Assembly: GCA_946623125.1 (NCBI GenBank)
Contig: CAMOQR010000003.1
Span: 1-57,574 of the forward strand
DNA from: an uncultured Bacillales bacterium
GTDB taxonomy: Bacteria > Bacillota_I > Bacilli_A > RF39 > UBA660
Direction of reading: 5' to 3'
DNA length: 57,574 bases
The notes beneath the pieces were generated by a model. That model saw only the letters and a list, made by a program, of their open reading frames with translations, did no database searches and had not been told where the DNA came from. Each line of letters begins with the position of its first letter. The first letter of the stretch is position 1. Position numbers and translations under genes: made by a program. This document shows positions 2,448 through 45,000 of the stretch, piece by piece.

Positions 2448-3010
2448 TCTTCCCCCTCCAATTCTTTTAATATTTCCATCCAGGTATTCACTCGTTTGAT
2501 TCCTTTTTTTTCTAATTCTTTATCATCAATATCTTTGTTATGCCACGCTGTCATTAATAATTTTTTATCTGAATTTTCTAAATTACATATTCGATCATCT
2601 ATCGCAATATCAGAATGAATTAAATTTTTATCACTAATAAAGATGTATTGTTTTGGGGATATGAATGGTAAATATTTTTTTAAATAGTCATATTTTTCTT
2701 TTAGATTTATTCCACTTATGTCTGGGTTACTCTCTTCATAAAGGTATGCTGTGGCAATATATAATTTATACTTTTGATTTAATATTTTAAGAGTCTCATA
2801 ACAATCTTTTAGTAATGGACAATCTCCATAAAATGTATGAGTCGTCATATAGTTCCAAAAGCCACCTTTCTTTTCTTTTGAAATTAGATTTTGGAGATAA
2901 AAATCTTTTTGATCATTTAATTTATAATTGGTATTTAAATATTCATTGATTCTTTCCATGAAATAAGCATCTGTTATACAATTGTCCATATCAATCATTA
3001 ATCGTTTCAT
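2444..3010 (-). CDS. HAD-superfamily 5'(3')-deoxyribonucleotidase-like (NT5C/YorS-like) hydrolase
   Basis: Start moved to MKRLMIDMDNCITD (ATG 3008-3010), which is preceded by AGGAGG. The N-terminal DxD motif (DMD) and ~190-aa size fit the NT5C-type HAD family. Confidence 0.6.
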   Translation of the reverse strand: MKRLMIDMDNCITDAYFMERINEYLNTNYKLNDQKDFYLQNLISKEKKGGFWNYMTTHTFYGDCPLLKDCYETLKILNQKYKLYIATAYLYEESNPDISGINLKEKYDYLKKYLPFISPKQYIFISDKNLIHSDIAIDDRICNLENSDKKLLMTAWHNKDIDDKELEKKGIKRVNTWMEILKELEGEE

Positions 3011-3021
3011 ATTTCCTCCTA

Positions 3022-3245
3022 CAAAAAAACTATTCATCCAAAAGGACGAATAGTTCGTGGTACCACCTTAATTTCTACTATATAAGTAGCTCTTTTTGTT
3101 AACGGAATAACCCGGGAATTCTTACTTATTTTCTGAATTCATGCTCCTCTGCTACCTTCATTATTCTTTTTTGTATTCTTTCACCAACATGAATACTCTC
3201 TTAAAAAAAAGTTATAATTACTCCTCAGATTCCTTGCATCTGCTA
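3022..3245 (-). promoter_or_regulatory. T-box riboswitch leader, Val specifier (GUA)
   Basis: Minus-strand read shows AGAGAGTA and GTTGGTGAAAG stem I elements and K-turn halves GATGC/GCATGA. The specifier loop ends ...AATGAAG-GTA-G before the CTG/CAG helix. T-box sequence AAATTAAGGTGGTACCACG is followed by terminator ACTATTC-N12-GAATAGT plus T7. Confidence 0.85.
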
Positions 3246-3248
3246 GTA

Positions 3249-3277
3249 ATTATAGCTCATTTTTCTTATTTTATCAA
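3249..3277 (-). promoter_or_regulatory. sigma-A type promoter of the Val T-box operon
   Basis: Minus strand TTGATA (3272-3277), 17 nt spacer, TATAAT (3249-3254), directly upstream of the T-box leader. Confidence 0.5.
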
Positions 3278-3281
3278 TAAA

Positions 3282-4148
3282 TTATTCATAAAAATCATCT
3301 AATGGTTCTTTTTCTTCTTCGTCATCTAAGTTGATTTCTTTTTGTTCTGGAACAATATCTTGTAATTCTGTAGAATAATCTACTTTTCCCATTCTAGAGT
3401 TTAATGCTTCTTGTGTTAAGTCATTTCCATAATACTTTTCTGCTTCTCTTCTTGTTCTTGATGCAACATATGGTTGTGGTGATTCTAACGCTTTCGTGTA
3501 ATCGTCATTTTCTAAGGTTTCATTTTTTGACTTGTTATTGGAATGTACTCTATATATTTTAACTGTATTATCCTTTCTTCCATGATGTTTTGCTTTATCT
3601 TTTTCAAACTTTTCATTTAATACTACTGCACCAACTGATCCTATTATTCCTGTTGCTCCAATAGCAATTCCTATTGGTACGGTATCAATAGAATCTGTTG
3701 ATAATTCTTTTTCAACTTGTTGATTTGACTTTTCTTTGTTACTACTATATAGTTCCATATTCAATGATTTCGTTAGGTCTATTGAGTTATTTGTTTTTAA
3801 TGATTTTAAAGATTTTCCAATATCATTTTCTTTATAGAAATCAGAAAGACTATTTACTGTTTCTTCTGTAACCTCTTCTAAATTAATAAAATATTGATTT
3901 GTTTTTTCTAAAGAGTCATATAAACTATTTGTCTTTCTTTTAATAATATTTAAATTATTGTAAATATTATTTAATTCTTCTTTATTTGTAAAGACTTCAT
4001 CATGTTTATAATTAATCTCTTTCATATATTCTTCTATATTTTCATAAAAGGATGTTAAATCAACACTATTAATGGTGTTATTAATGGAATCTAGAATACT
4101 AATGCTATTTGTTAATTTACTATGATCTATATAAACTTTATTATCCAT
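3282..4148 (-). CDS. hypothetical bitopic membrane protein: N-terminal helical/coiled region, one central TM (VPIGIAIGATGIIGSVGAVVL), charged C-terminal part ending in an acidic DDFYE tail
   Basis: ORF with AGGAGG RBS and no signal peptide. It is the last gene of the T7SS-style module. Confidence 0.6.
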   Translation of the reverse strand: MDNKVYIDHSKLTNSISILDSINNTINSVDLTSFYENIEEYMKEINYKHDEVFTNKEELNNIYNNLNIIKRKTNSLYDSLEKTNQYFINLEEVTEETVNSLSDFYKENDIGKSLKSLKTNNSIDLTKSLNMELYSSNKEKSNQQVEKELSTDSIDTVPIGIAIGATGIIGSVGAVVLNEKFEKDKAKHHGRKDNTVKIYRVHSNNKSKNETLENDDYTKALESPQPYVASRTRREAEKYYGNDLTQEALNSRMGKVDYSTELQDIVPEQKEINLDDEEEKEPLDDFYE

Positions 4149-4160
4149 AATTCCTCCTTT

Positions 4161-4631
4161 TTATAAAGAATAAGTTATTTGTTTTTTCTCTTCTAACCTC
4201 TTAATCCTATTTTTTAATATTAATATTTCATTTTCATTTTTTTGTCTATTATTTGATAAGATTCTAATATTATCTTGGTCTCTTTTTATTTGTTCTGTAA
4301 TTGCACTTATTAGTTGTCTTTTTTCTATTTCTTTTTGATTTATTGCTTCCTCTCTTATCTTTTTTAATAATAGAGTATAGGATATTTTTATTTCTTCTAT
4401 CTTGTTGATAATATCTATTGCAATATCGTTGGAAGGAGAATATCCTCCGACATTAAAAGCGTCTTTGGATAATCCCCCTGTTTTTATTTCTTGTTTTAAT
4501 GGTTCATAAATGACTGGATTCATATAGTGTGTGTATTCTTGAAAGTTTGATTGGATCGTTTCTTCAATTTCTGTCGGATTAATTATTTCTTTTGGATCTG
4601 TTTTCCAAGTAATCCATTCTACTTTTGACAT
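4161..4631 (-). CDS. hypothetical coiled-coil protein (156 aa)
   Basis: ORF with AGGAGG RBS. The C-terminal half is heptad-like and Lys/Glu/Ile-rich. No motif recognised. Confidence 0.55.
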   Translation of the reverse strand: MSKVEWITWKTDPKEIINPTEIEETIQSNFQEYTHYMNPVIYEPLKQEIKTGGLSKDAFNVGGYSPSNDIAIDIINKIEEIKISYTLLLKKIREEAINQKEIEKRQLISAITEQIKRDQDNIRILSNNRQKNENEILILKNRIKRLEEKKQITYSL

Positions 4632-4640
4632 ATTTTCCTC

Positions 4641-7496
4641 CTACTCACTTTCTAGTTCATTTAATTCCGGAGATATACTACTAAAATATGGATTATAGGC
4701 ATCTTCCTCTTTATAATATTCATCGTCTGGATGCTCATTTTCTTCCTTTTCTGATGACATTTTTTCAATATCATCTACTGATACATTTAGTGTATTATCA
4801 TCTTGGTCCCAATCATCCGTATAAAAATCATCATCTTCTATAGCATATTCATCTGTTTCTTCTTCTGTATTTTTGTTATCCATATATGCTTTTGCACCGA
4901 TTCCAGCAGCTGCTGCTGCACTGATTCCTGCCGCAATTGGAATGACTGATGATGAGGTTAGTTTTTGTTTTGAAACTGGTTTTGTTCCTGATGGAATACG
5001 ACTATATTTACTATTTTTTATTACTTCATCTATAGATGATGAACCTTTTTTAACAATTTCATCTAGTTCCTCAAGATTTTCTAAGTCTTGTAGTTCTTCA
5101 CTACCGGTTAAGGCAGCTAATTCTCCTAGGGATGAGGATTCTGTTGTTCCACTTGCGTTGTATCCTGATCCTGAATGATTTTCTCCATTGTTTGTTCCAC
5201 CTGTATTTGTTACCGTTCCTGTACCTTTAGGAGAAGGTATGAATTGTTCTCCAAGTGATGTGGTTGGTGTAGATTTTACGATACCGATGTTTCCTCCACC
5301 GCCCGGTGTAGGGGTGGAATGAGGATATGATGGTATTTTGGGAATTGGTGGTGTATATCTATAAGGCGGAGAATATGAATACGATGGGGTATAATACGAT
5401 GGGGTATAATACGTTGGCGTTGCTGTTACTGTAGGTAATAAAGTTGGAGTATACCTTTCTTGTTTGGTTGGGCAATATGTTTGAGATGGACTTGCTGTTG
5501 GTGTTGGAGATGGTGTTGGTGAGTATGTTGGAGTATACTTTGGTTCTTGAGAACTTCCTCCTTGATTTCTCACTTTTGGATATTCTCCGTTTGAATTTCC
5601 ACCTGAATTTCCACCTGAATTTCCGCCTGAATTTCCACCTTGATTTTGTCCATTTGAATATGGTTGTTCTTTATTATTACCACCTGGTGCTTCACCTCCA
5701 GGAGTATTTTCTCCTCCTGGATTTTCAGTTATTGTACGGACTTTTTCTGAAGTTTTTGGTGTGTCTTGGCTTCCCGTTCTTATTGTGTCATTTATTTCTT
5801 GAACAACTGCTTGTGTTGCTTCTCTTGTGTTATTTCCTGGTTTTTGGACTTCTGTTTCTGCCTTTAATTGTTGGTTTGCTACTTCACCTCTTGTTTGTGT
5901 TGCAGTTACGGCTACAACTCCTGGGATGGCTGGTGCTGCTGATGCTGCTGCAGTTGTTGCTGCATGAACAACCGATGCTGGATTAATATTTTTAGCGGCT
6001 TGTACGACTGATGCTGGATTTAGATTTTTGGCTGTTGCTACTACGCCATCTTTTATATTGGTTAAACCATTCTTTACTGAAGTAACAAGTCCTGCTCCTC
6101 CTTCTTTAGCGGTTGTTAGAGCAGCAGTAGCATTGGAAGTTACAGCTGATGCTGCAGATGTTGCAGCACCTTGAATACTTCCGGTAGTCGTTCCTTTGAT
6201 TGCAGAAATCATTGCATCTACGCCTTTTTTTGTAACCTCTGCTTGTTTTGATCCAATTTTTTGACCTAGTTTTGTAAATTTATCAGAGTAACCTTCAATC
6301 TTTATTCCTTTTGCTTCCTCTAAGGCTTGTTTTGCTTTTTCTAACTCTTTAGCATTTCTTGCCACATCATCCGTTGCATCTGCTATTTTTGCAGCAATAT
6401 CATCACTTGAATTTGCAGCACTATTTATAACGTCATCTGTTTTATCTACTACTTTTGATGTCTGTTTTGCAAGATGATTTATAACATCATCCCCTGAATT
6501 CGCGATTCCATTTAAAACATCATCTGAAGAGGATGCAGCATCTTTTTGAAGCATTTGTAATACTTTTTCAGATTTTGCAAGATTATTTGCCGCATCATCT
6601 ACTTTATCTGCTGCTTGTTGAATGGCTTTAGCCTTTGCAAGTCCTGCAAGTTTTTCTCCGGCTATTCCACCAGCAAAGGCAAATGCAGCTTGTGTTGCAC
6701 CTGCTTTCACACTTTTTTTCATCGCCTCATTATAACTTAGACCTGCGTTAAGTCCTTTTTCCATCGTGTTACCTAGACCACCTAAGCCATTTGCTGCTAC
6801 TGCTCCCCATGTTGAGCCTGATGCAGCTTGTAATGCTATGTTACTTGTTAAACCTAAACCTGACGCAGTCGATGCAAGTACTCCTCCTGCCATTAAGTAT
6901 CCTTCCACTTTTCCAACTACTTTAAGTGCTCCTGCTAAACCACTATCTTCCGTAAAAAGACTTTTTTTTGCAAAATCACTATTATAATATACATTGAACA
7001 AATCGTGAGAAAGATCTTTTTTAATAAAGGTTTCTACATCGTTCTGAAATTCATCGAATCCTAGGGCTCCTGCTCCCCATCCAACAACAGTTGTGACTGA
7101 ATCTATTAAATCCTCCCCAACTGATAAAAGTCCTTCTCCTAACTTTGCTAATGACATGATTGTTGTACTTGATATTTTTTCAAGAGCACTTGATTCACTA
7201 TAAATCTTTATTGCATCTGCTTTATCATTTAATTGAAGTGCTATTGAATGAATGGATTCTGTAATACTTTCAAATAGAGAATCATATGCTCCCACTTGAA
7301 TTGTTCCTACATATTGTTGTAATCCTCTTACATTATTTAATTGTTGTAATGCTGCATTAACATTGTCTTGTGCATTTCCTACCACTGTCTTTGCGATACC
7401 ATTTAATTCATCTGTTACAATTGCAACATTATCAAAATTTGCATATACATCTGCTTCTTTATCGTCTCTTCCTGTCAACCATGATATAAATCCCAT
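4641..7496 (-). CDS. giant T7SS-substrate-like protein, paralog 1 (helical N-domain, Gly/Ala-zipper region, Ala/Thr/Ser-, Gly/Asn- and Tyr/Pro/Thr-rich low complexity, C-terminal TM, acidic tail)
   Basis: Start moved to MGFISWLTG (ATG at 7496, GAAGGGAG RBS) to match the paralog start MGFFSWLTG. No signal peptide. The N-terminal ~200 aa and C-terminal ~70 aa align with ORF 8015-9964. Confidence 0.75.
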   Translation of the reverse strand: MGFISWLTGRDDKEADVYANFDNVAIVTDELNGIAKTVVGNAQDNVNAALQQLNNVRGLQQYVGTIQVGAYDSLFESITESIHSIALQLNDKADAIKIYSESSALEKISSTTIMSLAKLGEGLLSVGEDLIDSVTTVVGWGAGALGFDEFQNDVETFIKKDLSHDLFNVYYNSDFAKKSLFTEDSGLAGALKVVGKVEGYLMAGGVLASTASGLGLTSNIALQAASGSTWGAVAANGLGGLGNTMEKGLNAGLSYNEAMKKSVKAGATQAAFAFAGGIAGEKLAGLAKAKAIQQAADKVDDAANNLAKSEKVLQMLQKDAASSSDDVLNGIANSGDDVINHLAKQTSKVVDKTDDVINSAANSSDDIAAKIADATDDVARNAKELEKAKQALEEAKGIKIEGYSDKFTKLGQKIGSKQAEVTKKGVDAMISAIKGTTTGSIQGAATSAASAVTSNATAALTTAKEGGAGLVTSVKNGLTNIKDGVVATAKNLNPASVVQAAKNINPASVVHAATTAAASAAPAIPGVVAVTATQTRGEVANQQLKAETEVQKPGNNTREATQAVVQEINDTIRTGSQDTPKTSEKVRTITENPGGENTPGGEAPGGNNKEQPYSNGQNQGGNSGGNSGGNSGGNSNGEYPKVRNQGGSSQEPKYTPTYSPTPSPTPTASPSQTYCPTKQERYTPTLLPTVTATPTYYTPSYYTPSYSYSPPYRYTPPIPKIPSYPHSTPTPGGGGNIGIVKSTPTTSLGEQFIPSPKGTGTVTNTGGTNNGENHSGSGYNASGTTESSSLGELAALTGSEELQDLENLEELDEIVKKGSSSIDEVIKNSKYSRIPSGTKPVSKQKLTSSSVIPIAAGISAAAAAGIGAKAYMDNKNTEEETDEYAIEDDDFYTDDWDQDDNTLNVSVDDIEKMSSEKEENEHPDDEYYKEEDAYNPYFSSISPELNELESE
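5592..5639 (-). repeat. perfect/near-perfect 12-bp x4 in-frame tandem repeat encoding (GGNS)4
   Basis: tgaatttccacc tgaatttccacc tgaatttccgcc tgaatttccacc read on the plus strand. A neighbouring 15-bp x2 repeat (acgatggggtataat, 5381-5410) encodes YYTPS-YYTPS. Confidence 0.9.
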
Positions 7497-7571
7497 TTTC
7501 CATTCTCCCTTCAAGCACTTTCGTACAATATACCTATCATAATAATTATAAAAAAAAGTTTGTTATTAGTC

Positions 7572-7603
7572 AAATGAAAAAGAGGAGTTTACTCTCCTCT
7601 TTA
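7572..7603 (-). terminator. rho-independent terminator after the DUF4176 gene
   Basis: Minus strand AAGAGGAG-AGTAAA-CTCCTCTT followed by a T-run. Confidence 0.6.
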
Positions 7604-7607
7604 CTAT

Positions 7608-8000
7608 TTAATTATTTGGTTGCTCCTCAGGCTTTTCTTCTTCTTGTTTTTCAGCCTCTAGGCGTTTTTCTCTTTCTTCTAATCCACCAATCAAAATTTT
7701 AGAAATTTCCTTTTGTTTTTCTGTTTCATATCCTTTAAAACATACTTTTTCTATTTGATCATGATTGAAAGCAAATAATTGATCACTTGTTATCATTCCT
7801 TCAGGATAAACACATCCACCATAATCAAACATCTTATCTTTTACATCAACCTTACCATTTTTATCATAGGCATCTCCATTAGGAATAATACAATAGCTTA
7901 TAATCATTAATTCCCTTTTACCACCTTTTAATAGTACTACAGATCCGATTGGTAAAAATTTATTATCAATTTTGTTTTCTTCTTTTATTTCATTTTCCAT
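7608..8000 (-). CDS. DUF4176-family protein (T7SSb/LXG-neighbourhood accessory family)
   Basis: FLPIGSVVLLKGGKRELMII...FDYGGCVYPEGMI...FAFNHDQIEKVCFKGY matches my recollection of the DUF4176 consensus (LPlGSVV.Lk.g.kklmI...fDY.g..yPeG...fFnhedI..v.f.Gy). Confidence 0.7.
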   Translation of the reverse strand: MENEIKEENKIDNKFLPIGSVVLLKGGKRELMIISYCIIPNGDAYDKNGKVDVKDKMFDYGGCVYPEGMITSDQLFAFNHDQIEKVCFKGYETEKQKEISKILIGGLEEREKRLEAEKQEEEKPEEQPNN

Positions 8001-8014
8001 TTGATTTCCTCCTT

Positions 8015-9964
8015 TTATTGCAAGTCAGATAATTCTTCTTGATTTCTTGCAGTATAAGATTCTACGTTGTCTTGATAGTAGTCATCTTCTAATTCTTCGC
8101 CCGAATCATTACTACTATAATTAACTTCTACAGTGTCTTCATCGCCATTCCAATCTTCTGAGGTTGAAAAGTCATCATCTTCATATATAAACTCATCGTC
8201 TTCATCATCTGTTGAGTTATTCTTTTCACGATCAATATATGCTTTTGCGCCAATTCCTGCGGCTGCAGCAGCACTAAGCCCTGCAGCAATTGGAATAACT
8301 GAGCTTCCTTTTTTCTTTTTATTAACATTTGTAGGTGTCGTTGAAGTCGGAATCTTACTATACTTACTTCCATTTATTACATCATTCATTGCAGAATCTC
8401 TTGTTGCAGCATCATCTAATTCATCATCATGCGTTTCATCGAAATCATCAAATATTTCTTCATCTGTTTTTTCTAATGCTTGTAGAGTTTCTGCTTTTTC
8501 AAGTTCATTTACTTTTACACCATTGTCATATGTATATTCATCGTCTCCATATGCACCACCTGCATGAGAAGAATTTCCATCTTTTGGATTATCAGGGTCC
8601 TCATATTCAAATATTTTTTCTTTTTCAGTTGGTGGATCTTCTTGTCCTTTAATGCCCCATTCTTCGTTTGGAGTTGTTGGATTATTCGGATATTGATATC
8701 CTCCATTTACTCCACGTTGACCTCCTTCATCTGCTCTTGGATATGTTGGAATATCCGGTGCTTCTTTTGTTCCTGGAGGATTTTCTTGCGCTGGAGCAGT
8801 TGTTGGAATTGTGTCTGGAATTGTTGTTGGTACAGTTCCTAAAAGGTTCGGAGTTGTGGCTGGATTTGTCTCAGGTGTGGTTGTTGTTATTGTAGCAGGT
8901 GTTTGTTCTCCAGAAGTAGTTCCTCCGCCACCTGGTGTATTTCCACCACCTTCTACTTCTCGTTTTTGTATTTCTTTGTCGCCACCTTCTATTGGTATTT
9001 CTTGTTTTTGTTCTGGATCTTCTATTACTTCTGGAAGCTTTGTCTTTTCTTCTCCATCTTTAGGTATCCCGTCTTTTTTTGGCTCATCTATTATCGTTTC
9101 TACTTTGTTACTAAATTGTTGGTCAGCCATTTTACTTTTTTGAAGTCTTGCATCATTTAATAATGTTGCAGCGGCTGCTGCACCAGCAGTTGATGCAACT
9201 GTTCCACCTAAATGGGCCCCGGCAACTGTTCCAAGTCCTTGAATTATACCTGTTACTAATCCTGTTCCCATCGCCGCATTATAGCTTTGACCATTTTTAA
9301 GACCTTGTTCCACTCCATAACCAAATCCTGATGCGGCAGTTAGTGCTGGACTACCCAATAGCATTAATCCTGCTGTTTTACCTACTATTTTTGTGGCTCC
9401 TGCTATTGCACTATCTTCCGTAATAATACTTTTTTTTGCAAAATCACTTTTATAATACACATTAAATAAATCATGTGAAAGATCTTTTTTTACAAAGTTT
9501 GCAATATCGTTTTGAAATTTTTCAAATCCTAATCCTCCTGCACCCCATCCAACTATGGATACTGCTGTATCTAAAATTCCTTCCCCAACAGATGTAAATC
9601 CTTCTCCCAGTTTTGAAAGAACCATTGCTCCTCCACTTAAAACTTTTGAAAAAGGATCACTTTCACTATAGATTTTAATGGTATCCGCTTTATCATTTAA
9701 TTGTTTTCCTAGAGATTGAATCGTTTCAGTTATCGATTCAAATAATGAATCATAGCTATTTATTTGTATTGTTCCTACGTAGTCTGAAACACCATTTACA
9801 CTATTTACTTCTTGGATAGCTGCTTTTACCTCTTCTTCTGCTTGTTTTACTACTGTCGTTGATATATTGTTAAGTTCTTCAACAACTATTTCTACTTTAT
9901 CAAAATTGGCATATACGTCTGCTTCTTTTTCACTATGCCCTGTAAGCCACGAAAAAAAGCCCAT
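8015..9964 (-). CDS. giant T7SS-substrate-like protein, paralog 2 (same architecture as 4641-7496 but shorter)
   Basis: MGFFSWLTGHSEKEADVYANFDK... with no signal peptide. Features: a Gly/Ala-rich hydrophobic stretch, a Pro/Thr/Glu-rich region, a C-terminal SSVIPIAAGLSAAAAAGIGAKAY TM and an acidic DDEDDEFIYEDDDF tail. Confidence 0.75.
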   Translation of the reverse strand: MGFFSWLTGHSEKEADVYANFDKVEIVVEELNNISTTVVKQAEEEVKAAIQEVNSVNGVSDYVGTIQINSYDSLFESITETIQSLGKQLNDKADTIKIYSESDPFSKVLSGGAMVLSKLGEGFTSVGEGILDTAVSIVGWGAGGLGFEKFQNDIANFVKKDLSHDLFNVYYKSDFAKKSIITEDSAIAGATKIVGKTAGLMLLGSPALTAASGFGYGVEQGLKNGQSYNAAMGTGLVTGIIQGLGTVAGAHLGGTVASTAGAAAAATLLNDARLQKSKMADQQFSNKVETIIDEPKKDGIPKDGEEKTKLPEVIEDPEQKQEIPIEGGDKEIQKREVEGGGNTPGGGGTTSGEQTPATITTTTPETNPATTPNLLGTVPTTIPDTIPTTAPAQENPPGTKEAPDIPTYPRADEGGQRGVNGGYQYPNNPTTPNEEWGIKGQEDPPTEKEKIFEYEDPDNPKDGNSSHAGGAYGDDEYTYDNGVKVNELEKAETLQALEKTDEEIFDDFDETHDDELDDAATRDSAMNDVINGSKYSKIPTSTTPTNVNKKKKGSSVIPIAAGLSAAAAAGIGAKAYIDREKNNSTDDEDDEFIYEDDDFSTSEDWNGDEDTVEVNYSSNDSGEELEDDYYQDNVESYTARNQEELSDLQ

Positions 9965-9978
9965 AAGCTCTCACCTTC

Positions 9979-10380
9979 CTATCCAGTTACTCTCACTACT
10001 CCACTATGAGTTTTTACTGCTATATATGCTTGTTCATTTGCCAACTGTTGTAACTCATCATGTTTTCTGATTGATGCTTCATATAATTCATGGAAACTTT
10101 CTACAACTTGGGAAGGAATTTGAGCAATAGAGTCTGCTGTATCTTCAATGGCTCCTGTCATTTTTGTTCCTTGTACAATAATGGCTTCATTTGCATCATT
10201 ACTCATATCTCTTAACGCACTTGCAATTCGATTCATTGATTCTGTAAATACACTCTCTAAATTTTCAAGTGCTTTTAGTACTTCAACAGGATTAATTTTT
10301 GTTGTGGCATCTTCTGCTTGACATGAGGCAATACATTTTGATTCCCTATTATATCCATAATACTTTCTTGGTGCTAGCAT
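9979..10380 (-). CDS. hypothetical helical protein (~133 aa)
   Basis: Start moved to MLAPRKYYGY (ATG at 10380) behind a GGGGAG RBS. The longer track ORF would read through a strong hairpin. Confidence 0.5.
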   Translation of the reverse strand: MLAPRKYYGYNRESKCIASCQAEDATTKINPVEVLKALENLESVFTESMNRIASALRDMSNDANEAIIVQGTKMTGAIEDTADSIAQIPSQVVESFHELYEASIRKHDELQQLANEQAYIAVKTHSGVVRVTG

Positions 10381-10404
10381 TTTATCACTCCCCTTTTTTT
10401 GTAA

Positions 10405-10462
10405 TGTATAGGAAAGAGAGAACCTCGGTTCTCTTCTTCCTATACATTGCATAATTGCAATG
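10405..10462 (-). promoter_or_regulatory. intra-operon RNA structure: 20-bp imperfect hairpin plus adjacent 7-bp hairpin
   Basis: tgtataggaaagagagaacc/tc/ggttctcttcttcctataca (two central mismatches), then cattgca/taat/tgcaatg. No U-tract follows on the minus-strand transcript. Confidence 0.6.
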
Positions 10463-10466
10463 TATT

Positions 10467-10757
10467 TTATCCGTTTTGTTCATTACTGTATGCAAGAGAT
10501 TCAGCAACGATATTACGTATATTTTCTGCAGATAATTCCATAGCAGCTAATGTTCCTGGAATATCATCATTTTGATATTTATTCCAATTTTGTAATAAAG
10601 TATCAGCCCATGCTGTTTTGATGTTTCCACCAGCATATCTTCTCATTACTCCATCAAAATCTTCAAATGCAGTTTTCATTTGTCTAGTTACTCTTAAAAT
10701 TTCATCAGCATCTGAAAGTGCATTTGCTGTATCTGTAATTTCAATATTATTTTGCAT
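10467..10757 (-). CDS. WXG100-superfamily-like small helical-hairpin protein (96 aa; possibly Lap1/DUF3130-like)
   Basis: ~100-aa size with predicted helix-turn-helix composition, a central ...GGNIKTAWAD... turn and an FEDFD (FxxxD-type) motif. It sits two genes upstream of the first giant substrate-like gene. Confidence 0.5.
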   Translation of the reverse strand: MQNNIEITDTANALSDADEILRVTRQMKTAFEDFDGVMRRYAGGNIKTAWADTLLQNWNKYQNDDIPGTLAAMELSAENIRNIVAESLAYSNEQNG

Positions 10758-10781
10758 AATGTTATAATACTCCTTTCTTTA

Positions 10782-11075
10782 TTATCTCATATTTCCCATA
10801 ACGTTATTAATTGTTTGTCCTAACTGTTGACCTTTATCACCTAAATATTGTTCTGCTTTTTGAAGTTCATCTCTAATAGCATTAAAAATATCTTCTTTTG
10901 AATCAAATTTTTGTTTTAGGCTGTCAGCAAGTGGTCCTCTAATTGATTTTGTAGATGCATTTTGCATTACTGTTGATAGTGCATTATAACTCTTAATATA
11001 GTTAGATGCTGCTTGACCTACTTCATCTTCCAATGTTCTAATATCATTTTGATCTACAACTACTGTTTCTCCCAT
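10782..11075 (-). CDS. WXG100-superfamily-like small helical-hairpin protein (97 aa, degenerate WxG = IRG)
   Basis: ~100 aa. The central SIRGPLADSLKQKF aligns by eye with the EsxA-type WEGQAFSRFEEQF turn. First gene of the module, with a strong RBS. Confidence 0.5.
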   Translation of the reverse strand: MGETVVVDQNDIRTLEDEVGQAASNYIKSYNALSTVMQNASTKSIRGPLADSLKQKFDSKEDIFNAIRDELQKAEQYLGDKGQQLGQTINNVMGNMR

Positions 11076-11146
11076 ATTCTTTTCACCTCCTAATTTTTAT
11101 TTAAGAATATGTTTTCCTTCAATCCGAACCCATATCCTATGTCTTC

Positions 11147-11175
11147 ATTGTATATTTTTTTTTTAACTTAATCAA
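11147..11175 (-). promoter_or_regulatory. candidate sigma-A promoter of the T7SS-style module
   Basis: Minus strand TTGATT (11170-11175), 17 nt spacer, TACAAT (11147-11152), about 70 nt upstream of the first small gene. Confidence 0.4.
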
Positions 11176-11313: not shown

Positions 11314-11691
11314 ATGGAAAATAATTATATTCATGAAATTATTTGTAAAATCTTAATGTTGCAACATCAAGATTTTGATTCTGATCTATCTAGTTGTGAT
11401 AAACCATTTTTAGGTCCAAGTATTCCAAATTCTGTTTATAATACTAGACCAATTCAATTATACAATTCTTATACTGCTACTCCTTGGAGTTTTTCCTATA
11501 CTTCAGATGGAACAACTTCCTCTAGTGATATTTTTCGAATTGAATCCTGTGATACTGGTACAGTAACTGTTCGTCTCTTATCTTATGATGTTGCTAGTAA
11601 CACTTATACCAATTTAAATCAATTTGTGACTATTCGATTTGATACCATTGGTGCAATTCGTTGTTTACCGGATACTTTCATTACATTATAA
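11314..11691 (+). CDS. spore coat/exosporium protein, CotY/CotZ/ExsY family-like
   Basis: Pattern I..I..LQ...(C)...LG....NTRP..LY...P...FRIE....T.RLL.......AIRCL parallels B. subtilis CotZ (LQ..C..C..LL...DTVPF...FRVE...CATL.LL...CAINCL). Confidence 0.6.
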   Translation: MENNYIHEIICKILMLQHQDFDSDLSSCDKPFLGPSIPNSVYNTRPIQLYNSYTATPWSFSYTSDGTTSSSDIFRIESCDTGTVTVRLLSYDVASNTYTNLNQFVTIRFDTIGAIRCLPDTFITL

Positions 11692-11724
11692 AAGAATATC
11701 CATTTTTTACGGATATTCTTTTTC
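11690..11724. terminator. bidirectional terminator between convergent genes
   Basis: aagaatatcc / attttttac / ggatattctt, flanked by A/T runs on both sides. Confidence 0.6.
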
Positions 11725-11982
11725 TATTTCAACAATTTCATTTATTGGTATTCTGTTACTATCAACTGTTATAATCTCTTTCTCCGTTTTATCTATTATA
11801 TATGTTTTATATTCTTTTTCTTTTGTTTTGATTATCATTTTATTATGATATAACAGATTTCTATTTTGGAATAATTCATTTATTTTATCTTCTATATTAC
11901 CCTCTTTTACATAACAATATTTTTTATTATTTTGTGAAATATTTTTCGAATTTGTTTTATATATATTATCTATTTTATTCAT
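11707..11982 (-). CDS. hypothetical protein (91 aa)
   Basis: ORF only; Lys/Asn/Ile-rich; no motif recognised. Confidence 0.35.
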   Translation of the reverse strand: MNKIDNIYKTNSKNISQNNKKYCYVKEGNIEDKINELFQNRNLLYHNKMIIKTKEKEYKTYIIDKTEKEIITVDSNRIPINEIVEIEKEYP

Positions 11983-27579: not shown

Positions 27580-29625
27580 TTACCCTACTGGTGTTAGCAT
27601 CATTGGATTTACGGCTTGTGTTTCTGCTGGATTTTGTGGAATCATTTGTTGTGGCATTACTGGTTGAGATGCTTGTTGCATGTTTGCTTGAATAATTTGT
27701 TGTGTTACGTTGTTTTGTTCCATTGGTTGTGGCATTGCTGGTTGAGCAGCATTTTGCATACCAAATGGATTTGCTGCCATCATTTGTTGAGCCATAGCTG
27801 TAGCATCTGCATTTGCAACAGCTTGAATGTTTTGATTTTGGACTGGTGCTGCCTCTGGTTCTGTATACCAAACTTTTTCAAGATCAACGTTATTTGATAA
27901 TGGTCTTGGATTTGGTAAGTCTATATACATTGTTGTAGGTACTTTAAAAGCACTTCCAAAAGCAATACAATTTCCTGGTTTCAAATTCTTTAATTGTAAA
28001 ACAATTTCGGCCGAAACAAATGGAACCATCTCTTTAATATATTTTAAATCTACCGGGTGCATCGTTCTTAAAATAACAAAATTTACACACTGAGATACAC
28101 AGGTATCGGATAACTCACTTGGTCTTTGAGTAATCATTGCTAAAAATATACCATATTTACGTCCCTCTTTAGCAATACGTTCGAATATATTATATCCTAA
28201 CAATTCAATATCACTATCGTGTTGTACATAACGGTGTGCCTCTTCGATGATAATATGAAAGGCTCTGCTACCTCTTGGTTTAATCATACTTGATTTGATA
28301 AATAGCATTCTTGAAATGATTTTTGTAATAACTTTAGCAATACGATCATCTACATAGTTTATGTTAAAGTTTACAATTTGTACTCTACCACCTGTTGTAG
28401 GATCCGTTGTCAAGGTATCAATAAACTGGTCTCTTGTAACATATTTTGGATAAGTAAAGTAATGTCTGTTATCTCCTGTTGCTAAGGTATGTAAACGTAC
28501 ACTCATAACGTTTGCATTATCAAATACTTTATTACTTTTTAAAATACCTTCATTAATAAGCGCAAAGTCCATAGCAAGTTCTAGATCATTTAATGAATAA
28601 TATGGATTTGCATCTGATTCATCTAGAATTTCATCTTCTAGTATGTATCCTCTTATAAACTCTACAACTAATTCCATCTCTTGCATTTTACCTGTTTTAT
28701 CAACAAATAAACATTGTTTAAAAGTACGAGTATATCCTGGTTGTACAATTTGACTTTCCAAATTAAGGGTTGGTGTATTAAATTTTGTCATTACACCTAT
28801 TACTTGGTCACGAATTTTGGTTGATTCATCTCCACTTAATAGGATATCTTGTACTGCTCTTGCAATAATATCATTTTTTCTTTTTATAACTTTATCACTT
28901 GTACCTGTTAAGATACGTACAAGTTTTAATGTTTTTTCAATAATAGGTAATTGAGATGGTGAGTTTGCATCTAGTAATAGTGCTAGATCATCTACATCTA
29001 ATAACCAAACTGGGATTCTTAAAATTTCACAATCTGGATCGATAATATTTGTTGTATATGATTTATATCCTAATTTAGAGTTTACATCATGTAATCCACT
29101 AAAGGCGTGCGTATACTCTCCATAGGCATCGAAGAAGAATAGGGATGAATTAATTGGTGGTGTTGGACTACTAGTAAATAGTTTTTGTAGGATAGATGCA
29201 ACTGTACAGCTTTTACCAGAACCAGTATTTCCTAAAATAGAAAAGTGACTGTTAAAAAACTCATTTATAGATACGTTTATTTTATATCCTTCATATACAT
29301 TACTTGTTCCAAAGTTTGTATATCCTAAAGATGTTTCTTGTTTACCATAGATTAATTCCAATTCTTCCATTTCAATTAATCGAATGGTTGATTTGAATGC
29401 AGGCTTTACATTTCCACCTGGTGTAAAGTTTCCATCGTTTATTTCACCTACTAAATTGGCATACATATATTCTTTGTCTACGTTTACTATTTCTGCAATG
29501 ATTTTCTTATTACTTCCATCTTCAAACACAATATGTAAGTTTACTAAGTTTGGTTGTTCTGTAATATCAATCTCTAATTTTATTTTTACTTGGTTATCTA
29601 GTATCTGTTCAATTTTTCCTAGCAT
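27580..29625 (-). CDS. HerA-like (DUF87) FtsK/HerA-superfamily P-loop ATPase with Gln/Pro/Met-rich C-terminal tail
   Basis: Start taken at MLGKIEQ (ATG 29625, GAGGGTGA RBS). N-terminal HAS-barrel-like segment, Walker A ILGNTGSGKS, Walker B FHIIIEEAHRYV, ITQRPSELS. The last ~85 aa are a low-complexity Q/P/M/A/N tail. No TM segment. Confidence 0.8.
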   Translation of the reverse strand: MLGKIEQILDNQVKIKLEIDITEQPNLVNLHIVFEDGSNKKIIAEIVNVDKEYMYANLVGEINDGNFTPGGNVKPAFKSTIRLIEMEELELIYGKQETSLGYTNFGTSNVYEGYKINVSINEFFNSHFSILGNTGSGKSCTVASILQKLFTSSPTPPINSSLFFFDAYGEYTHAFSGLHDVNSKLGYKSYTTNIIDPDCEILRIPVWLLDVDDLALLLDANSPSQLPIIEKTLKLVRILTGTSDKVIKRKNDIIARAVQDILLSGDESTKIRDQVIGVMTKFNTPTLNLESQIVQPGYTRTFKQCLFVDKTGKMQEMELVVEFIRGYILEDEILDESDANPYYSLNDLELAMDFALINEGILKSNKVFDNANVMSVRLHTLATGDNRHYFTYPKYVTRDQFIDTLTTDPTTGGRVQIVNFNINYVDDRIAKVITKIISRMLFIKSSMIKPRGSRAFHIIIEEAHRYVQHDSDIELLGYNIFERIAKEGRKYGIFLAMITQRPSELSDTCVSQCVNFVILRTMHPVDLKYIKEMVPFVSAEIVLQLKNLKPGNCIAFGSAFKVPTTMYIDLPNPRPLSNNVDLEKVWYTEPEAAPVQNQNIQAVANADATAMAQQMMAANPFGMQNAAQPAMPQPMEQNNVTQQIIQANMQQASQPVMPQQMIPQNPAETQAVNPMMLTPVG

Positions 29626-29645
29626 CAAAATCACCCTCTATTATC

Positions 29646-42019: not shown

Positions 42020-45000
42020 TTATTCATTGGCTTTTTCTTTTTTTATTATTCTATAAATTGGGAATATTGATAGACTTAGTATTGTTCCTAAAATAATGAC
42101 TATTGGAACATAGGTCTTCGGATTCTTAACAGTATAAGTATTTACAAATTCTACATCACTTGTTTTTTGATCTATTATTTGTCCTTTTTCTCCACTACTT
42201 GTCATCGTATATCCCTTTACTTCATATCCTACTTCTTCAATTTCATAGTAATATCCGGCAGGTAGATTTTTAATTTCTAAAGATTCATTTGATTTTACTG
42301 TAAACTTAGCAACTCCATTTTCAAAAGTTAATCCACCTATTTCTCCATTTACGGATTCATCAACAATTTCTGTAGAATTTGCTGATACTTCTTCTAACAT
42401 TTCTTTGCTTATTGAATCATGATCGTTTTCTCGTTGTAATTCTTTTCTAAATTCATTTTCTCTTATTGATCTTCCACGTGATTCAAATACTTCAGGTGAC
42501 ATTAAGCGAATGATAAATTGGAATTCATCTTTCTCTGGGAATAAATCTCCTTTTATTCTCTTATTTACTTTAATTGTTCCTGTTTCTATCCTGTGTTCTG
42601 TCGTTTCTGATTTTATTTCAAATGTCTTATTATTAAATGCTTTTAAAGCAAAGTTATTATCAACTTGTGTATTGATTAGACTTTTTGGAGTTGTAGGTAT
42701 TAGAATATGAATTTCTTCTTGTGCTAATATTTGACTGATTTCAAATGTTAATTTGCTTCCGGAGTTTGTCATTTTAACTAGCGATGAATCTTTTAATAAT
42801 GTTGAATTGTCTTCATTTCCAATTCCTTCTTTATAGAATGATATTTCATCTAAATTTGGTGTAACATTACTTGGTATGTCATCTTCAATAATTACTTTTG
42901 AAAATGACTCATGTTCATTATTATTGGATACTGATAAATTATATACCAAATTTTCTTTAAATTTAACAGTAGGTAAATCTTTCTTGTTAACTTTTGCTGT
43001 CTTTCTTATATTTAGTTTTGGAGTCGTAATTCCTACCTTTGTGTATTCATATACGGACAAATTGAAATGTGCTGGTTCATCTCCTTGTTTTGTTGTTCCG
43101 CTCCACCATGCTGCATTATACGCATAAGCATTGTTTTTTTCTAATTCTTCAACATTTCTTGTTGGAGCCTGCATTGTAATTGTTGCAACAACACTCTCTT
43201 CGTTTTCTAGTATGAAGGCATCTCCTGATTTCTTTTTACTAATATCAATTGCAATTGCTGTTACTCTAGATAAATCATCTGGCGGCGTAGTTGTCCATTT
43301 TGAATTATTTGCCAAATCATTAATGCTGCTTGGAAGTGGCTTGTCAATACTTGCCTTTCCATTGTCATATATATTGAAACTTGATGGATCACTTGTTGAA
43401 TAATAAACAACTGGATTTGCTCCTTTTTTTTCTATTTGACTGGTATCAATTGATACAAATGAGCCTTTCCATTGTTCTTTATCTTTTGATTGATAATTTT
43501 CTAATATGTCATAAATTACTAAATCTGATGTAGATAGGTTTCTTTGTGTTGCATATCTTAATCGATAGGTATAATATCCTCCACCTGTTGTTTTTGCACT
43601 TCCATCTTGCCCGTCAGTATATTCATCTAGTCCTGGTGTAATAACAGCCTTATTAAAGAATGAATCAGATGCTGTATTGAAGGAGAAGGATGCACTTCTT
43701 TGGGCATATACTGTGTCTTTTTTCGTTGATGCATTTCCGTCTTGATCTAAATCTATAAAGTAATCTTTATCTACATAAGATGAACTAAGTTCTGATGAGT
43801 CGTCAGCATATCCATTACTTAAATCTGTGTTTTCTGATTTATAAGCAACTGTATTGACTAGGGAATTTCCATAATCTGGAATTCTATCCCAGTCATAATA
43901 TCCTGTAAATTTTAATACAAATCCTGAGTACACATATCTTTCTGTGGATGTTCCTTTCGGTACATAATTTGATGATTGGTCAGCAGGCAATGCTACGGAT
44001 ACTACCATCATGGTTCTTCCTGAATTTTTCCAGTTTTCAATTTTTGACACCTTTGTTGGTACAACTATTCCTGCCTTTAATGATGTTGGACTACTTGGTG
44101 TACTTGAATCAGTAATGGTTGTATCAAATGTTTCAACGGTAACTGTTTCTGGTGAGACTGTCATTCCCTTTGGAAGTAAATCATAGAATGTTCCGGCTTT
44201 TTGTTCTTTCAAAATTTTCATGTCAATCATATCAGTATCCGATAGATTATTGCTATTATATGTTACTCTTTCATACGATACAGCCGTGTATTCTGCTTCA
44301 ATTCTTCGTTTTGCCGTATTATTACTATATTTTACCCACTTATCACTATACGTTTTTCCATCAACTATTCTTGTATAGATTGTTGCATAACCTGTTGTTG
44401 GTCCATATTCTGTATATGGTCTGCTATAGTAATGATAATGATATATTTCCTTTCCGTAATCTGCAATATCTTTGGCATTTACAATTTCTGAAATTTTTCC
44501 ATTTGGTAATGTTTGATAACTCCCTCTATCATCTACTTCTTTACTATAGATATTTCCTTTATAATCCACTGCATAAGAACCGCTATAATTGTATAATTTT
44601 ACACTTTTTTGATTTTTCATGATATTTTTCACGTGAGCACTTGGTTTTAATCTGACGTGAACATATAAAGTCATACTAATGGAATAATTTTTATTTGTAG
44701 AGACCGCTTTAACACCACTTACTCCTTCAGGAAGAGGAATTCCATATATATTATTTTTCTTATTTGTACAATCATAGGATTTTATTGTTTCATCTAATAA
44801 TTCATAATCATAAGTGTAGTTTCCTACTTTTGTTACTTTTGCAAAATAATTCCATTCCCCATTCTTTTTATAATATAGAAGAATGGGTGGTAAATCGGAT
44901 GTGTTTGTTGATGTTGTTGTCCATCCAGTATAGTTTGTTGTTACTTTTGTCGAACTATTTGTAGAACTCCACTGACTATATATATAATTGGTTCCCGAGT

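Follow-up and report, generated by a model that had tools for sequence, protein, structure and literature searches.

An eight-gene DUF4176 module of uncultured gut and rumen Bacilli carries a new family of N-terminal domains and probably encodes cargo of a T7SSb-type secretion system

The sequence studied here is a stretch of 57,574 nucleotides (nt), contig CAMOQR010000003.1 of the assembly GCA_946623125.1 from an uncultured Bacillales bacterium; it is part of a sheep-rumen metagenome scaffold and is called the window below. The subject of the analysis is a module of eight open reading frames (ORFs) at positions 3282-11075, denoted g1 to g8. The ORF listing of the window gives all eight as intact and co-directional on the minus strand, as a preliminary description made from the sequence alone had claimed. 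Three small genes (g1, g2 and g3) are followed by a gene for a giant protein (g4), a DUF4176 gene (g5), a second giant (g6) and two further genes (g7 and g8) (Table 1). Outside the module the window consists largely of the housekeeping sequence (FtsW, PrsW, IleRS, SepF, DivIVA, AsnRS) of a spore-former with 28% G+C. The preliminary description had recognised in the module the layout of an effector locus of a T7SSb-type type VII secretion system (T7SS), i.e. small helical partners and a DUF4176 protein next to large proteins that have a helical N-terminus and no signal peptide, and our results agree with this view of the layout.

The two giants are paralogous, as was supposed: their N-terminal 270 amino acids (aa) are 55% identical (E=3e-90) and their C-terminal modules 43% identical (E=8e-9). 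An alignment with 11 database homologues reveals the general architecture of the family, i.e. a conserved N-terminal domain of ~300 aa (the N-domain), a hypervariable middle of low-complexity sequence with much Pro/Thr, Gly and Ser, and a conserved C-terminal module. The latter consists of the motif SKYxKIPTSTxP, a Gly/Ala-rich helix and an acidic tail of 70-90 aa that ends in Y-x-A-R-x-x-E-L-A-D-L-Q. In g4 the N-domain covers aa 1-~270, the middle is Pro/Thr-rich, and the C-terminal module has the helix IPIAAGLSAAAAAGIGA and a tail ending in YTARNQEELSDLQ. In g6 the same N-domain contains an additional Gly-rich insert, and the protein also has low-complexity stretches of GGNS and of Pro/Thr/Tyr-rich sequence, and the same C-terminal helix and acidic tail. 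After its N-domain (aa ~320-385) there are five 11-residue repeats, xxDDV[I/L]xxxAx, which are a candidate amphipathic element for the binding of DUF4176 or of lipids. The DDV repeat recurs many times in distant family members, e.g. in the protein P0120. Neither g4 nor g6 has a signal peptide.

The AlphaFold2 (AF2) model of the N-domain (predicted local distance difference test, pLDDT, 72.9) is all-helical: a helix-turn-helix of ~80 aa is followed by long Gly/Ala-rich helices. The hairpin helices comprise residues 21-55 and 68-101, and the V-x-G turn holds the invariant residues N54, G58 and Y62; further conserved residues of the domain are W140, YY170-171 and TEDS182-185. The LXG profile PF04740 does not match g4 or g6 at E<=1, nor any of 12 N-domains at E<=10 or of 10 distant family members at E<=1. 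At the detection level of these Pfam scans the N-domain is not a member of the LXG family, which bears out the earlier remark that the N-domains do not look like canonical LXG. A PDB profile search with the N-domain alignment returned compositional coiled-coil matches at most, and a Foldseek search with the model returned nothing significant apart from a weak EsxA-like match (probability 0.6, E=8.7).

An exhaustive profile search finds the N-domain family in 393 clusters at 50% identity (E<=1e-3), 162 of which are reached at E<=1e-30. The domain stands at the N-terminus in every case. Among the 151 members retrieved, the helix and tail at the C-terminus are present in 106, and a minority of the family has soluble C-termini in their place. 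P0011 and P0039 end in an ADP-ribosyltransferase (ART) exotoxin domain (PF03496), and P0052 ends in an EndoU nuclease domain whose score of 24 bits is just below the Pfam cut-off of 25.3. The P0011 gene is followed by a 99-aa gene and then by an ADP-ribosylglycohydrolase gene (ADP_ribosyl_GH), i.e. by an immunity-like arrangement. In other words, the N-domain is constant and a minority of its C-termini are ART or EndoU domains, so that it behaves like the trafficking domain of a polymorphic-toxin family. The giants of the window itself are different in this respect: Pfam and NCBIfam scans of the module proteins found no toxin domain or immunity array at g4 and g6, and the preliminary description had likewise recognised none.

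N-domain proteins are also found at a separate second conserved locus (L021 with P0009, L022 with P0010 and L003 with P0011), where they are 'orphans' with soluble, variable C-termini. The genes 3' of them vary, being either an RlaP-type nucleotidyltransferase and a CCA-adding enzyme or the 99-aa gene and ADP-ribosylglycohydrolase, a pattern that looks like toxin-immunity polymorphism. PDB sequence searches for the toxin identity of P0009 and P0010 were empty. P0009 shares its sheep-rumen sample series with the window.

The g5 protein is the only one of the eight that matches a curated family in Pfam or NCBIfam. It scores 89.4 bits against DUF4176 (PF13780; cut-off 25, E=1.6e-25) and matches the solved DUF4176 structure 9dcs_A (E=2.4e-8), which confirms its original assignment. 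DUF4176 proteins are known as Ltc chaperones, which stabilise T7SSb LXG toxins via a disordered amphipathic region (PMC12478183). It is conspicuous that g5 is the most conserved gene of the module. Its orthologues in the clade are 61-74% identical over the full length (64-85% in BLAST local alignments), as compared to 34-57% for the N-domain and about 23-42% for g1, and the DUF4176 copy of the distant locus L023 is 46% identical. Pairs of a giant and a DUF4176 gene occur one to three times per locus.

Of the small proteins, g1 is apparently a remote relative of the WXG100 family. Its profile aligns over the full length with that of Pfam-confirmed WXG100 proteins from related loci (hhalign probability 88%, E=3e-6, 83 columns), the I-R-G of g1 being placed on the W-x-G of WXG100, and there is a weak full-length match to EsxA of S. 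aureus (2vrz, E=0.043). Within the [I/L/M]-x-G turn that g1 orthologues have instead of W-x-G, G47 is invariant. The orthologues of g2 (22-46% identical) share an invariant central W50, with no conserved Gly two residues past it, and a conserved C-terminal A-x-x-Y-x-x-E-Q. There is no profile similarity between g2 and WXG100 (hhalign 10%), and PDB profile searches with the g2 and g3 alignments returned compositional coiled-coil matches at most. Neither g1 nor g2 matches the Pfam profile PF06013 at E<=1, and the NCBIfam profile ESAT6_2 reaches g1 below threshold (E=0.045). Of the proposed pair of WXG100-like proteins, g1 alone shows a remote homology to that family. The FEDFD motif to which the preliminary description drew attention is seen in the g2 of the window only and is not kept in 15 orthologues, so it was rejected as a Lap1-type FxxxD export signal. 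Lap1 (DUF3130/TIGR04197) and Lap2 (DUF3958) have no Pfam or NCBIfam matches among g1-g8; in other words, among the WXG100, DUF3130, DUF3958, DUF4176 and LXG profiles that had been suggested for these proteins, DUF4176 alone gave a match.

The orthologues of g3 are about 35-49% identical. Its AF2 model (18 sequences, pLDDT 89.8) is a long helical hairpin (helices 31-63 and 75-123) capped by a small three-stranded beta-sheet (strand region 6-21, strand 130-132), for which Foldseek finds generic helical hairpins and no significant structural neighbour in the PDB. Since g1 and g2 (plus g3) lie directly upstream of a giant in all syntenic loci, g3 is, judging from this position, probably a third partner of the N-domain.

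The N-terminus of the g7 protein is conserved (VDWITWKTDPKEIINP) and its C-terminal half is rich in charged residues; there is no hydrophobic segment, and no known family in Pfam or NCBIfam matches the protein. Throughout the clade of the window its gene follows the last giant or DUF4176 gene and precedes g8. The g8 protein, which had been described as bitopic, does have one strong hydrophobic segment (Kyte-Doolittle 2.15). It consists of a conserved N-terminal domain of ~110 aa, a glycine-zipper-like transmembrane (TM) helix (VPIGIAIGATGIIGSVGAVV) and a tail that is first basic and then acidic and in which a P-Y-x-A-x-R...Y-Y-G motif is conserved. The P-Y-x-A-x-R recalls the terminal Y-x-A-R of the giants, a likeness without statistical significance; hhalign comparisons of g8 with WXG100 and with the giants (16% and 19%) were not significant either, and a relationship to these proteins was rejected.

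The module is syntenic in 16 loci of GTDB species representatives and in dozens of metagenome contigs (79 metagenome loci), a conservation which indicates that the genes are real and not chance ORFs. The carriers are at least 15 species of uncultured gut/rumen Bacilli; the GTDB loci come from metagenome-assembled genomes labelled as uncultured Bacilli, 'Erysipelotrichaceae' or 'Mollicutes'. The gene order of the clade is PrsW - GT4 - ftsW(-) - [u91 - cotZ(-)] - g1 - g2 - g3 - giant - DUF4176, followed by zero to two further giant - DUF4176 pairs and by g7 - g8 - (NT5C) - ValRS. The number of giants per locus varies from 1 to 3.

The secretion machinery was sought in the window by a Pfam run on every plausible ORF of at least 120 aa, among which EssC, EsaA, EssA, EssB, EsaB and EsxA are absent, and by tblastn with three EssC types and the EsaB and WXG100 proteins of relatives, which found nothing. 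The statement that no T7SS core gene occurs within these 57 kb therefore holds. It had been one ground for the suggestion that the module might be a substrate set for a different export route, which is not supported by the gene order in relatives. In the distant locus L023, whose family member is more divergent, the order is essC - esaB-like - g1 homologue - g2 homologue - g3-like - giant (P0120) - DUF4176; its EssC scores 929 bits against TIGR03928 (cut-off 778) and the next gene matches YukD weakly. In L051, the DNA of which is ~90% identical to L010, a GTDB species of the clade, the order PrsW-GT4-ftsW-cotZ-g1-g2-g3-giant-DUF4176-g7-g8 is the same as in the window, and g8 is followed by a second small DUF4176 gene (DUF4176b), essC (927.6 bits) and an esaB-like gene. 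In L026, which belongs to a sister lineage (its GT4 is 70% identical to that of the window), an essC-esaB cluster lies between GT4 and ftsW, two genes that are 3 nt apart in the window. Finally, an EssC of this type is encoded in L029, at a chromosomal site that is unrelated. The essC cassette thus occurs in at least four positions relative to the module, i.e. the cassette moves, and the missing machinery of the window probably reflects a variable gene order. In similar samples about 13 distinct EssC clusters were found whose identity to the L026 protein is 49-63%, and this number would fit with most species of the clade having one.

Between GT4 and ftsW there is a slot that seems to be a hot spot of recombination. 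In L095-L099, L103 and L106 the order is PrsW - GT4 - g1 - g2 - (g3) - giant - DUF4176 - ftsW(-) - cotZ(-), i.e. a shortened module without g7 and g8 fills the slot where L026 has its essC cluster. Upstream of essC, L026 encodes a protein of 1562 aa (positions 2878-7566 of that locus) without Pfam annotation. Its central Gly/Ala-rich hydrophobic region recalls the N-domain of the giants, its C-terminus has an HD-like motif, and it may be another T7SS toxin.

The intergenic gaps of the module are 9-24 nt with the exception of g2-g3 (89 nt) and g5-g6 (111 nt), so the short gaps of the preliminary description apply to most junctions and not to these two. The ATG of g6 at 7496 is preceded by an AGGGAG-type ribosome-binding site. 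What had been called a consensus promoter 5' of g1 has 9 matching positions out of 12, and such promoter-like matches are no more frequent in the AT-rich module region (30 found) than in shuffled sequences (34.6 expected). The earlier picture of one promoter-led set is further weakened by a better promoter-like site and a terminator-like hairpin between g5 and g6. These two features make two transcription units possible, i.e. g6-g8 may be transcribed separately from g1-g5. The T-box leader directly 3' of g8 opens the following operon, which encodes NT5C, a 148-aa protein and ValRS, and thereby sets the 3' boundary of the module.

A conserved RNA element was found in the g2-g3 spacer, which is highly conserved in all 15 of the 15 loci compared, the distant L023 included. 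A palindrome (ATACATTGC...GCAATGTAT) that is invariant comes first and a hairpin after it, and a third copy (ATGCATTGCAT) pairs with the middle copy to form a stem of 24 bp. There are two mutually exclusive folds, and an invariant segment just upstream of the stem can pair with its 5' arm instead. In the stem 96.4% of the cells are paired, as compared to at most 63.5% in slid controls, and seven pairs show compensatory changes, which was reached by 0 of 500 shuffles. No Rfam family matches the element. Presumably a regulatory or processing element of the operon, it may serve as a site of processing by RNase III, as a stabiliser or a switch, or else as an operator in the DNA.

Two other large ORFs of the window were considered as parts of the machinery and rejected. 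One encodes a P-loop ATPase of 684 aa, which is HerA-type (DUF87) and has no FHA domain match; its FtsK_SpoIIIE match at the P-loop is sub-threshold (24.8 bits, with no stretch passing alone). This protein has a Gln/Pro/Met-rich C-terminal tail, and its gene has SepF and DivIVA as neighbours to one side and genes for a small membrane protein, a lipoprotein and a PP2C phosphatase to the other. The second, a 1520-aa ORF considered as EssC, has C-terminal DUF7601 and DUF5979 surface-protein domains instead and is probably a surface protein. A GH94-family protein at the end of the window is unrelated to the module.

Table 1. Features of the module and other window genes discussed in the text (positions are those of the window).
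Feature	Position	Strand	Size	Remarks
g1	10782-11075	(-)	97 aa	divergent WXG100-like; proposed targeting factor (Lap-like) or EsxA-like partner
g2	10467-10757	(-)	96 aa	FEDFD inside; proposed second targeting factor
g3	9979-10380	(-)	133 aa	from inner ATG; mechanical ORF 157 aa
g4	8015-9964	(-)	649 aa	giant
g5	7608-8000	(-)	130 aa	small-class DUF4176 (Ltc-type) chaperone
g6	4641-7496	(-)	951 aa	paralogous giant, from ATG; 957 aa from upstream TTG
g7	4161-4631	(-)	156 aa	
g8	3282-4148	(-)	288 aa	bitopic
Promoter-like site 5' of g1	11147-11175	(-)		TTGATT-17-TACAAT; 9/12 positions match; weak evidence
Conserved RNA stem-loop	10399-10452	(-)	24-bp stem	in g2-g3 spacer (10381-10469)
Invariant segment upstream of stem	10457-10465			alternative pairing with 5' arm
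Terminator-like hairpin, g5-g6	7579-7602	(-)	9-bp stem	then T-rich tail; pattern match
Promoter-like site, g5-g6	7545-7573	(-)		TTGACT-17-TATAAT; 11/12 positions; pattern match
T-box leader RF00230	3039-3243	(-)		130.8 bits, gathering score 93
CotZ-like gene	11314-11691	(+)	125 aa	Pfam-annotated in L001 orthologue
CotO-like gene	11707-11982	(-)	91 aa	weakly CotO-like
P-loop ATPase	27580-29634	(-)	684 aa	HerA-type DUF87
DUF7601/DUF5979 protein	42020-46582	(-)	1520 aa	probably a surface protein
GH94-family protein	49778-57406	(-)	2542 aa	glucoamylase-like, supersandwich and GH94 catalytic domains

We think that the module probably encodes T7SSb-type cargo together with its targeting factors and its chaperone, built on a new N-terminal trafficking domain that is LXG-like. 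This reading is based on the WXG100-like character of g1, the small genes upstream of the giant, DUF4176, the linkage to essC-esaB in relatives and the toxin fusions of the N-domain. Lap targeting factors are characterised by small WXG100-like genes that lie upstream of a substrate (PMC10801868; PMC11217815). The N-domain would then be a previously undescribed analogue of LXG that is not detectably a member of that family, and the module would be a new variant of a known secretion system, with a new trafficking-domain family and new partner families, rather than a new export route.

In terms of mechanism, g4 and g6 would be held export-competent in the cytoplasm. The N-terminal helix-turn-helix (aa ~20-105, with the conserved V-x-G turn) would form a bundle with g1, g2 and probably g3 acting as Lap-type targeting factors, whereas g5, as an Ltc-type chaperone, would shield the adjacent hydrophobic Gly/Ala-rich helices (aa ~110-300) and/or the DDV repeats. 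The complex would be handed over to the EssC ATPase and its EsaB partner, which in this genome would be encoded outside the window. After export the C-terminal Gly/Ala helix would tether the giants; their acidic tail would stay in the cytoplasm, and the Pro/Thr-rich stretch would cross the wall so that the N-domain is displayed on the cell surface. We note that all physical interactions, the dependence on EssC in this organism, the membrane topology and the final destination are deduced from sequence and gene order.

The destination of the giants can be seen in two ways. That they end as membrane-tethered, wall-spanning surface proteins has, in our estimate, about an even chance. This fate is favoured by the Pro/Thr-rich spacer before the C-terminal helix, by the acidic tail, which is conserved and cytoplasmic-looking, by the fixed position of the locus in the core genome and by the lack of an immunity array. 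It is also possible, if somewhat doubtful, that the Gly-zipper helices are membrane-active toxin elements like that of TelE, in which case g8 and perhaps g7 would be neutralising or immunity partners.

Several observations weigh against the cargo interpretation as a whole. The N-domain has no LXG signal, PDB sequence match or significant Foldseek match, and profile and PDB searches and hhalign detect no similarity of g2 and g3 to the WXG100 or Lap families. In the window, and in L001-L022 up to 10 kb from the module, there is no EssC, EsaB or Pfam-detectable WXG100, and at least 17 loci that run past g8 continue to ValRS either directly or by way of NT5C. The module is inherited vertically as a core locus in a fixed position, which is unusual for polymorphic toxins, and it has no immunity array. 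The C-terminal helix is weakly hydrophobic (Kyte-Doolittle 1.66-1.69), and the flanking charges do not settle its topology.

We regard it as unlikely that the giants, g7 and g8 are instead envelope components, tethered to the membrane after their own export, of a minimal and so far undescribed T7SS subtype of uncultured gut Bacilli in which EssC and EsaB alone can be recognised, their LXG-like N-domain having later been co-opted for the delivery of ART and EndoU toxins, or that clade members without essC use the module by a membrane insertion that is independent of a T7SS. In a related reading, which seems rather improbable to us, the module is part of the secretion apparatus itself, i.e. of a minimal T7SS subtype recognisable by EssC and EsaB only. 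Here g1 and g2 would be the EsxA-like core pair, the giants would be envelope-spanning stalks functionally analogous to EsaA/TsdI, and g8 and g7 would replace EssA and EssB. It is in line with this that EsaA, EssA and EssB were not recognised near essC in L023, L026 and L051, where the giants and g8 are the sole membrane-associated proteins of the clusters, and that g1 is WXG100-like, with no second WXG100 detected in the window. Components that are large, span the envelope and carry a C-terminal TM helix are known from T7SSd, e and j (PMC11217815), and a single, syntenic locus that all examined genomes of the clade retain is typical of core machinery rather than of cargo. However, the same N-domain bears ART and EndoU at separate loci with immunity-like neighbours, which marks it as a cargo-targeting domain, and DUF4176 proteins are chaperones of substrates. 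The giants also vary in number, are hypervariable and of low complexity in their middles and have neither the Sec signals nor the polytopic anchors of TsdI and EsaA. Moreover, the related essC loci L024, L027 and L028 possess Pfam-positive WXG100 genes of their own, and no homologue of g7 or g8 was detected in L023, which was searched with other queries and not with g7 itself.

The module could also be an orphan, left behind by a T7SS core that was lost, with the giants inserted into the membrane independently of a T7SS (as tail-anchored proteins, by YidC or spontaneously) and g1-g3 and DUF4176 acting as cytoplasmic holdases only. The window has no essC at either of the sites used by its relatives, given that GT4 abuts ftsW and that g8 is followed by the T-box leader and ValRS; at least 17 module loci have no adjacent essC, and the C-terminal hydrophobic helix with its tail resembles a tail anchor. 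Against this stands the state of the genes: all eight are intact and the identity of DUF4176 is 61-74% (up to 85% in local alignments) over at least 15 species, which would be hard to maintain without a cognate machine. The essC cassette is, besides, mobile relative to the module (four arrangements), about 13 EssC clusters come from the same kinds of samples, and L029 has its essC at an unrelated chromosomal site. We therefore hold this reading to be improbable. A sporulation or spore-coat function, suggested by the position of the module between ftsW/spoVE-like and CotZ/CotO-like genes (a CotZ-like and a weakly CotO-like gene between ftsW and g1, an arrangement kept in many relatives) and by SpoIIIAH and GerM-type genes in the window, is very hard to maintain, since cotZ and u91 are missing from the syntenic L007, L008 and L012 and from L023, where the module follows essC, g1-g8 match no sporulation family in Pfam or NCBIfam, and the DUF4176, WXG100 and essC links point elsewhere.

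If the cargo interpretation is right, an unannotated family of 393 clusters joins the short list of T7SS targeting domains, and three new partner families are added. A DUF4176 chaperone could then serve cargo that usually ends in a membrane helix and an acidic tail rather than in an enzyme toxin, which hints that T7SSb may install membrane-tethered surface proteins besides releasing toxins. In this lineage essC moves relative to the cargo loci, and little can be concluded when the machinery is absent from a window of 50 kb. The carriers form a widespread group of uncultured rumen/gut bacteria, in which T7SS-mediated competition or adhesion is unexplored.

Among known systems, the closest comparison is with the LXG-Lap-Ltc modules, such as those of TelA and TelB of Streptococcus intermedius (PMC10801868, PMC12478183). 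Both have small helical partners, a large protein without signal peptide whose N-terminus is helical and serves, here presumably, as a targeting domain, a hydrophobic or disordered region after that domain, and DUF4176. In both the C-termini of the family include interchangeable toxins (here ART and EndoU), and the module studied here is linked to essC-esaB in relatives. On the other hand, the N-domain is missed by the LXG profile and constitutes a family of its own with a V-x-G turn, and g1-g3 match no Lap1-4 family and are three partners instead of two. The DUF4176 gene, of the 'small' class, comes after the giant, whereas in the LXG modules it stands between the lap genes and the gene of the toxin. 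A Gly/Ala helix and an acidic tail, rather than a toxin, form the end of about 70% or more of the N-domain family, and the position in the core genome is fixed, without an immunity array.

The seven-protein TelE module of Streptococcus gallolyticus is similar in another way. In it an LXG-type protein has a C-terminal glycine-zipper helix as its membrane-active element and is co-expressed with two partners of its N-terminal domain, with a DUF4176 protein that binds its centre, and with membrane and soluble proteins, encoded downstream, that bind its C-terminus (PMC10434224; bioRxiv 10.64898/2026.03.12.711312). The order g1, g2, ..., giant, DUF4176, g7, g8 is comparable, although DUF5085 (TipE) and the six-TM partner have no counterpart here. 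The giants are 1.3-2x longer than TelE and have Pro/Thr-rich spacers and an acidic tail of 70-90 aa past the helix.

With WXG100/EsxA proteins (PF06013), g1 shares its length of ~97 aa, a full-length remote homology (88%) and the Gly that aligns with the Gly of WxG. It differs in that Trp is replaced by Ile, Leu or Met and in that it stays below the Pfam and NCBIfam thresholds, whereas g2 has an invariant Trp without detectable homology. Finally, the giants resemble EsaA of T7SSb and TsdI/TseI/TsjI of T7SSd, e and j (PMC11217815) in being large, variable and encoded in T7SS clusters and, as predicted, surface-exposed and TM-tethered. A Sec signal peptide or several TM segments are present in those proteins, which have no domain in common with toxins; the giants lack both a Sec signal and several TM segments and come with a dedicated substrate chaperone.

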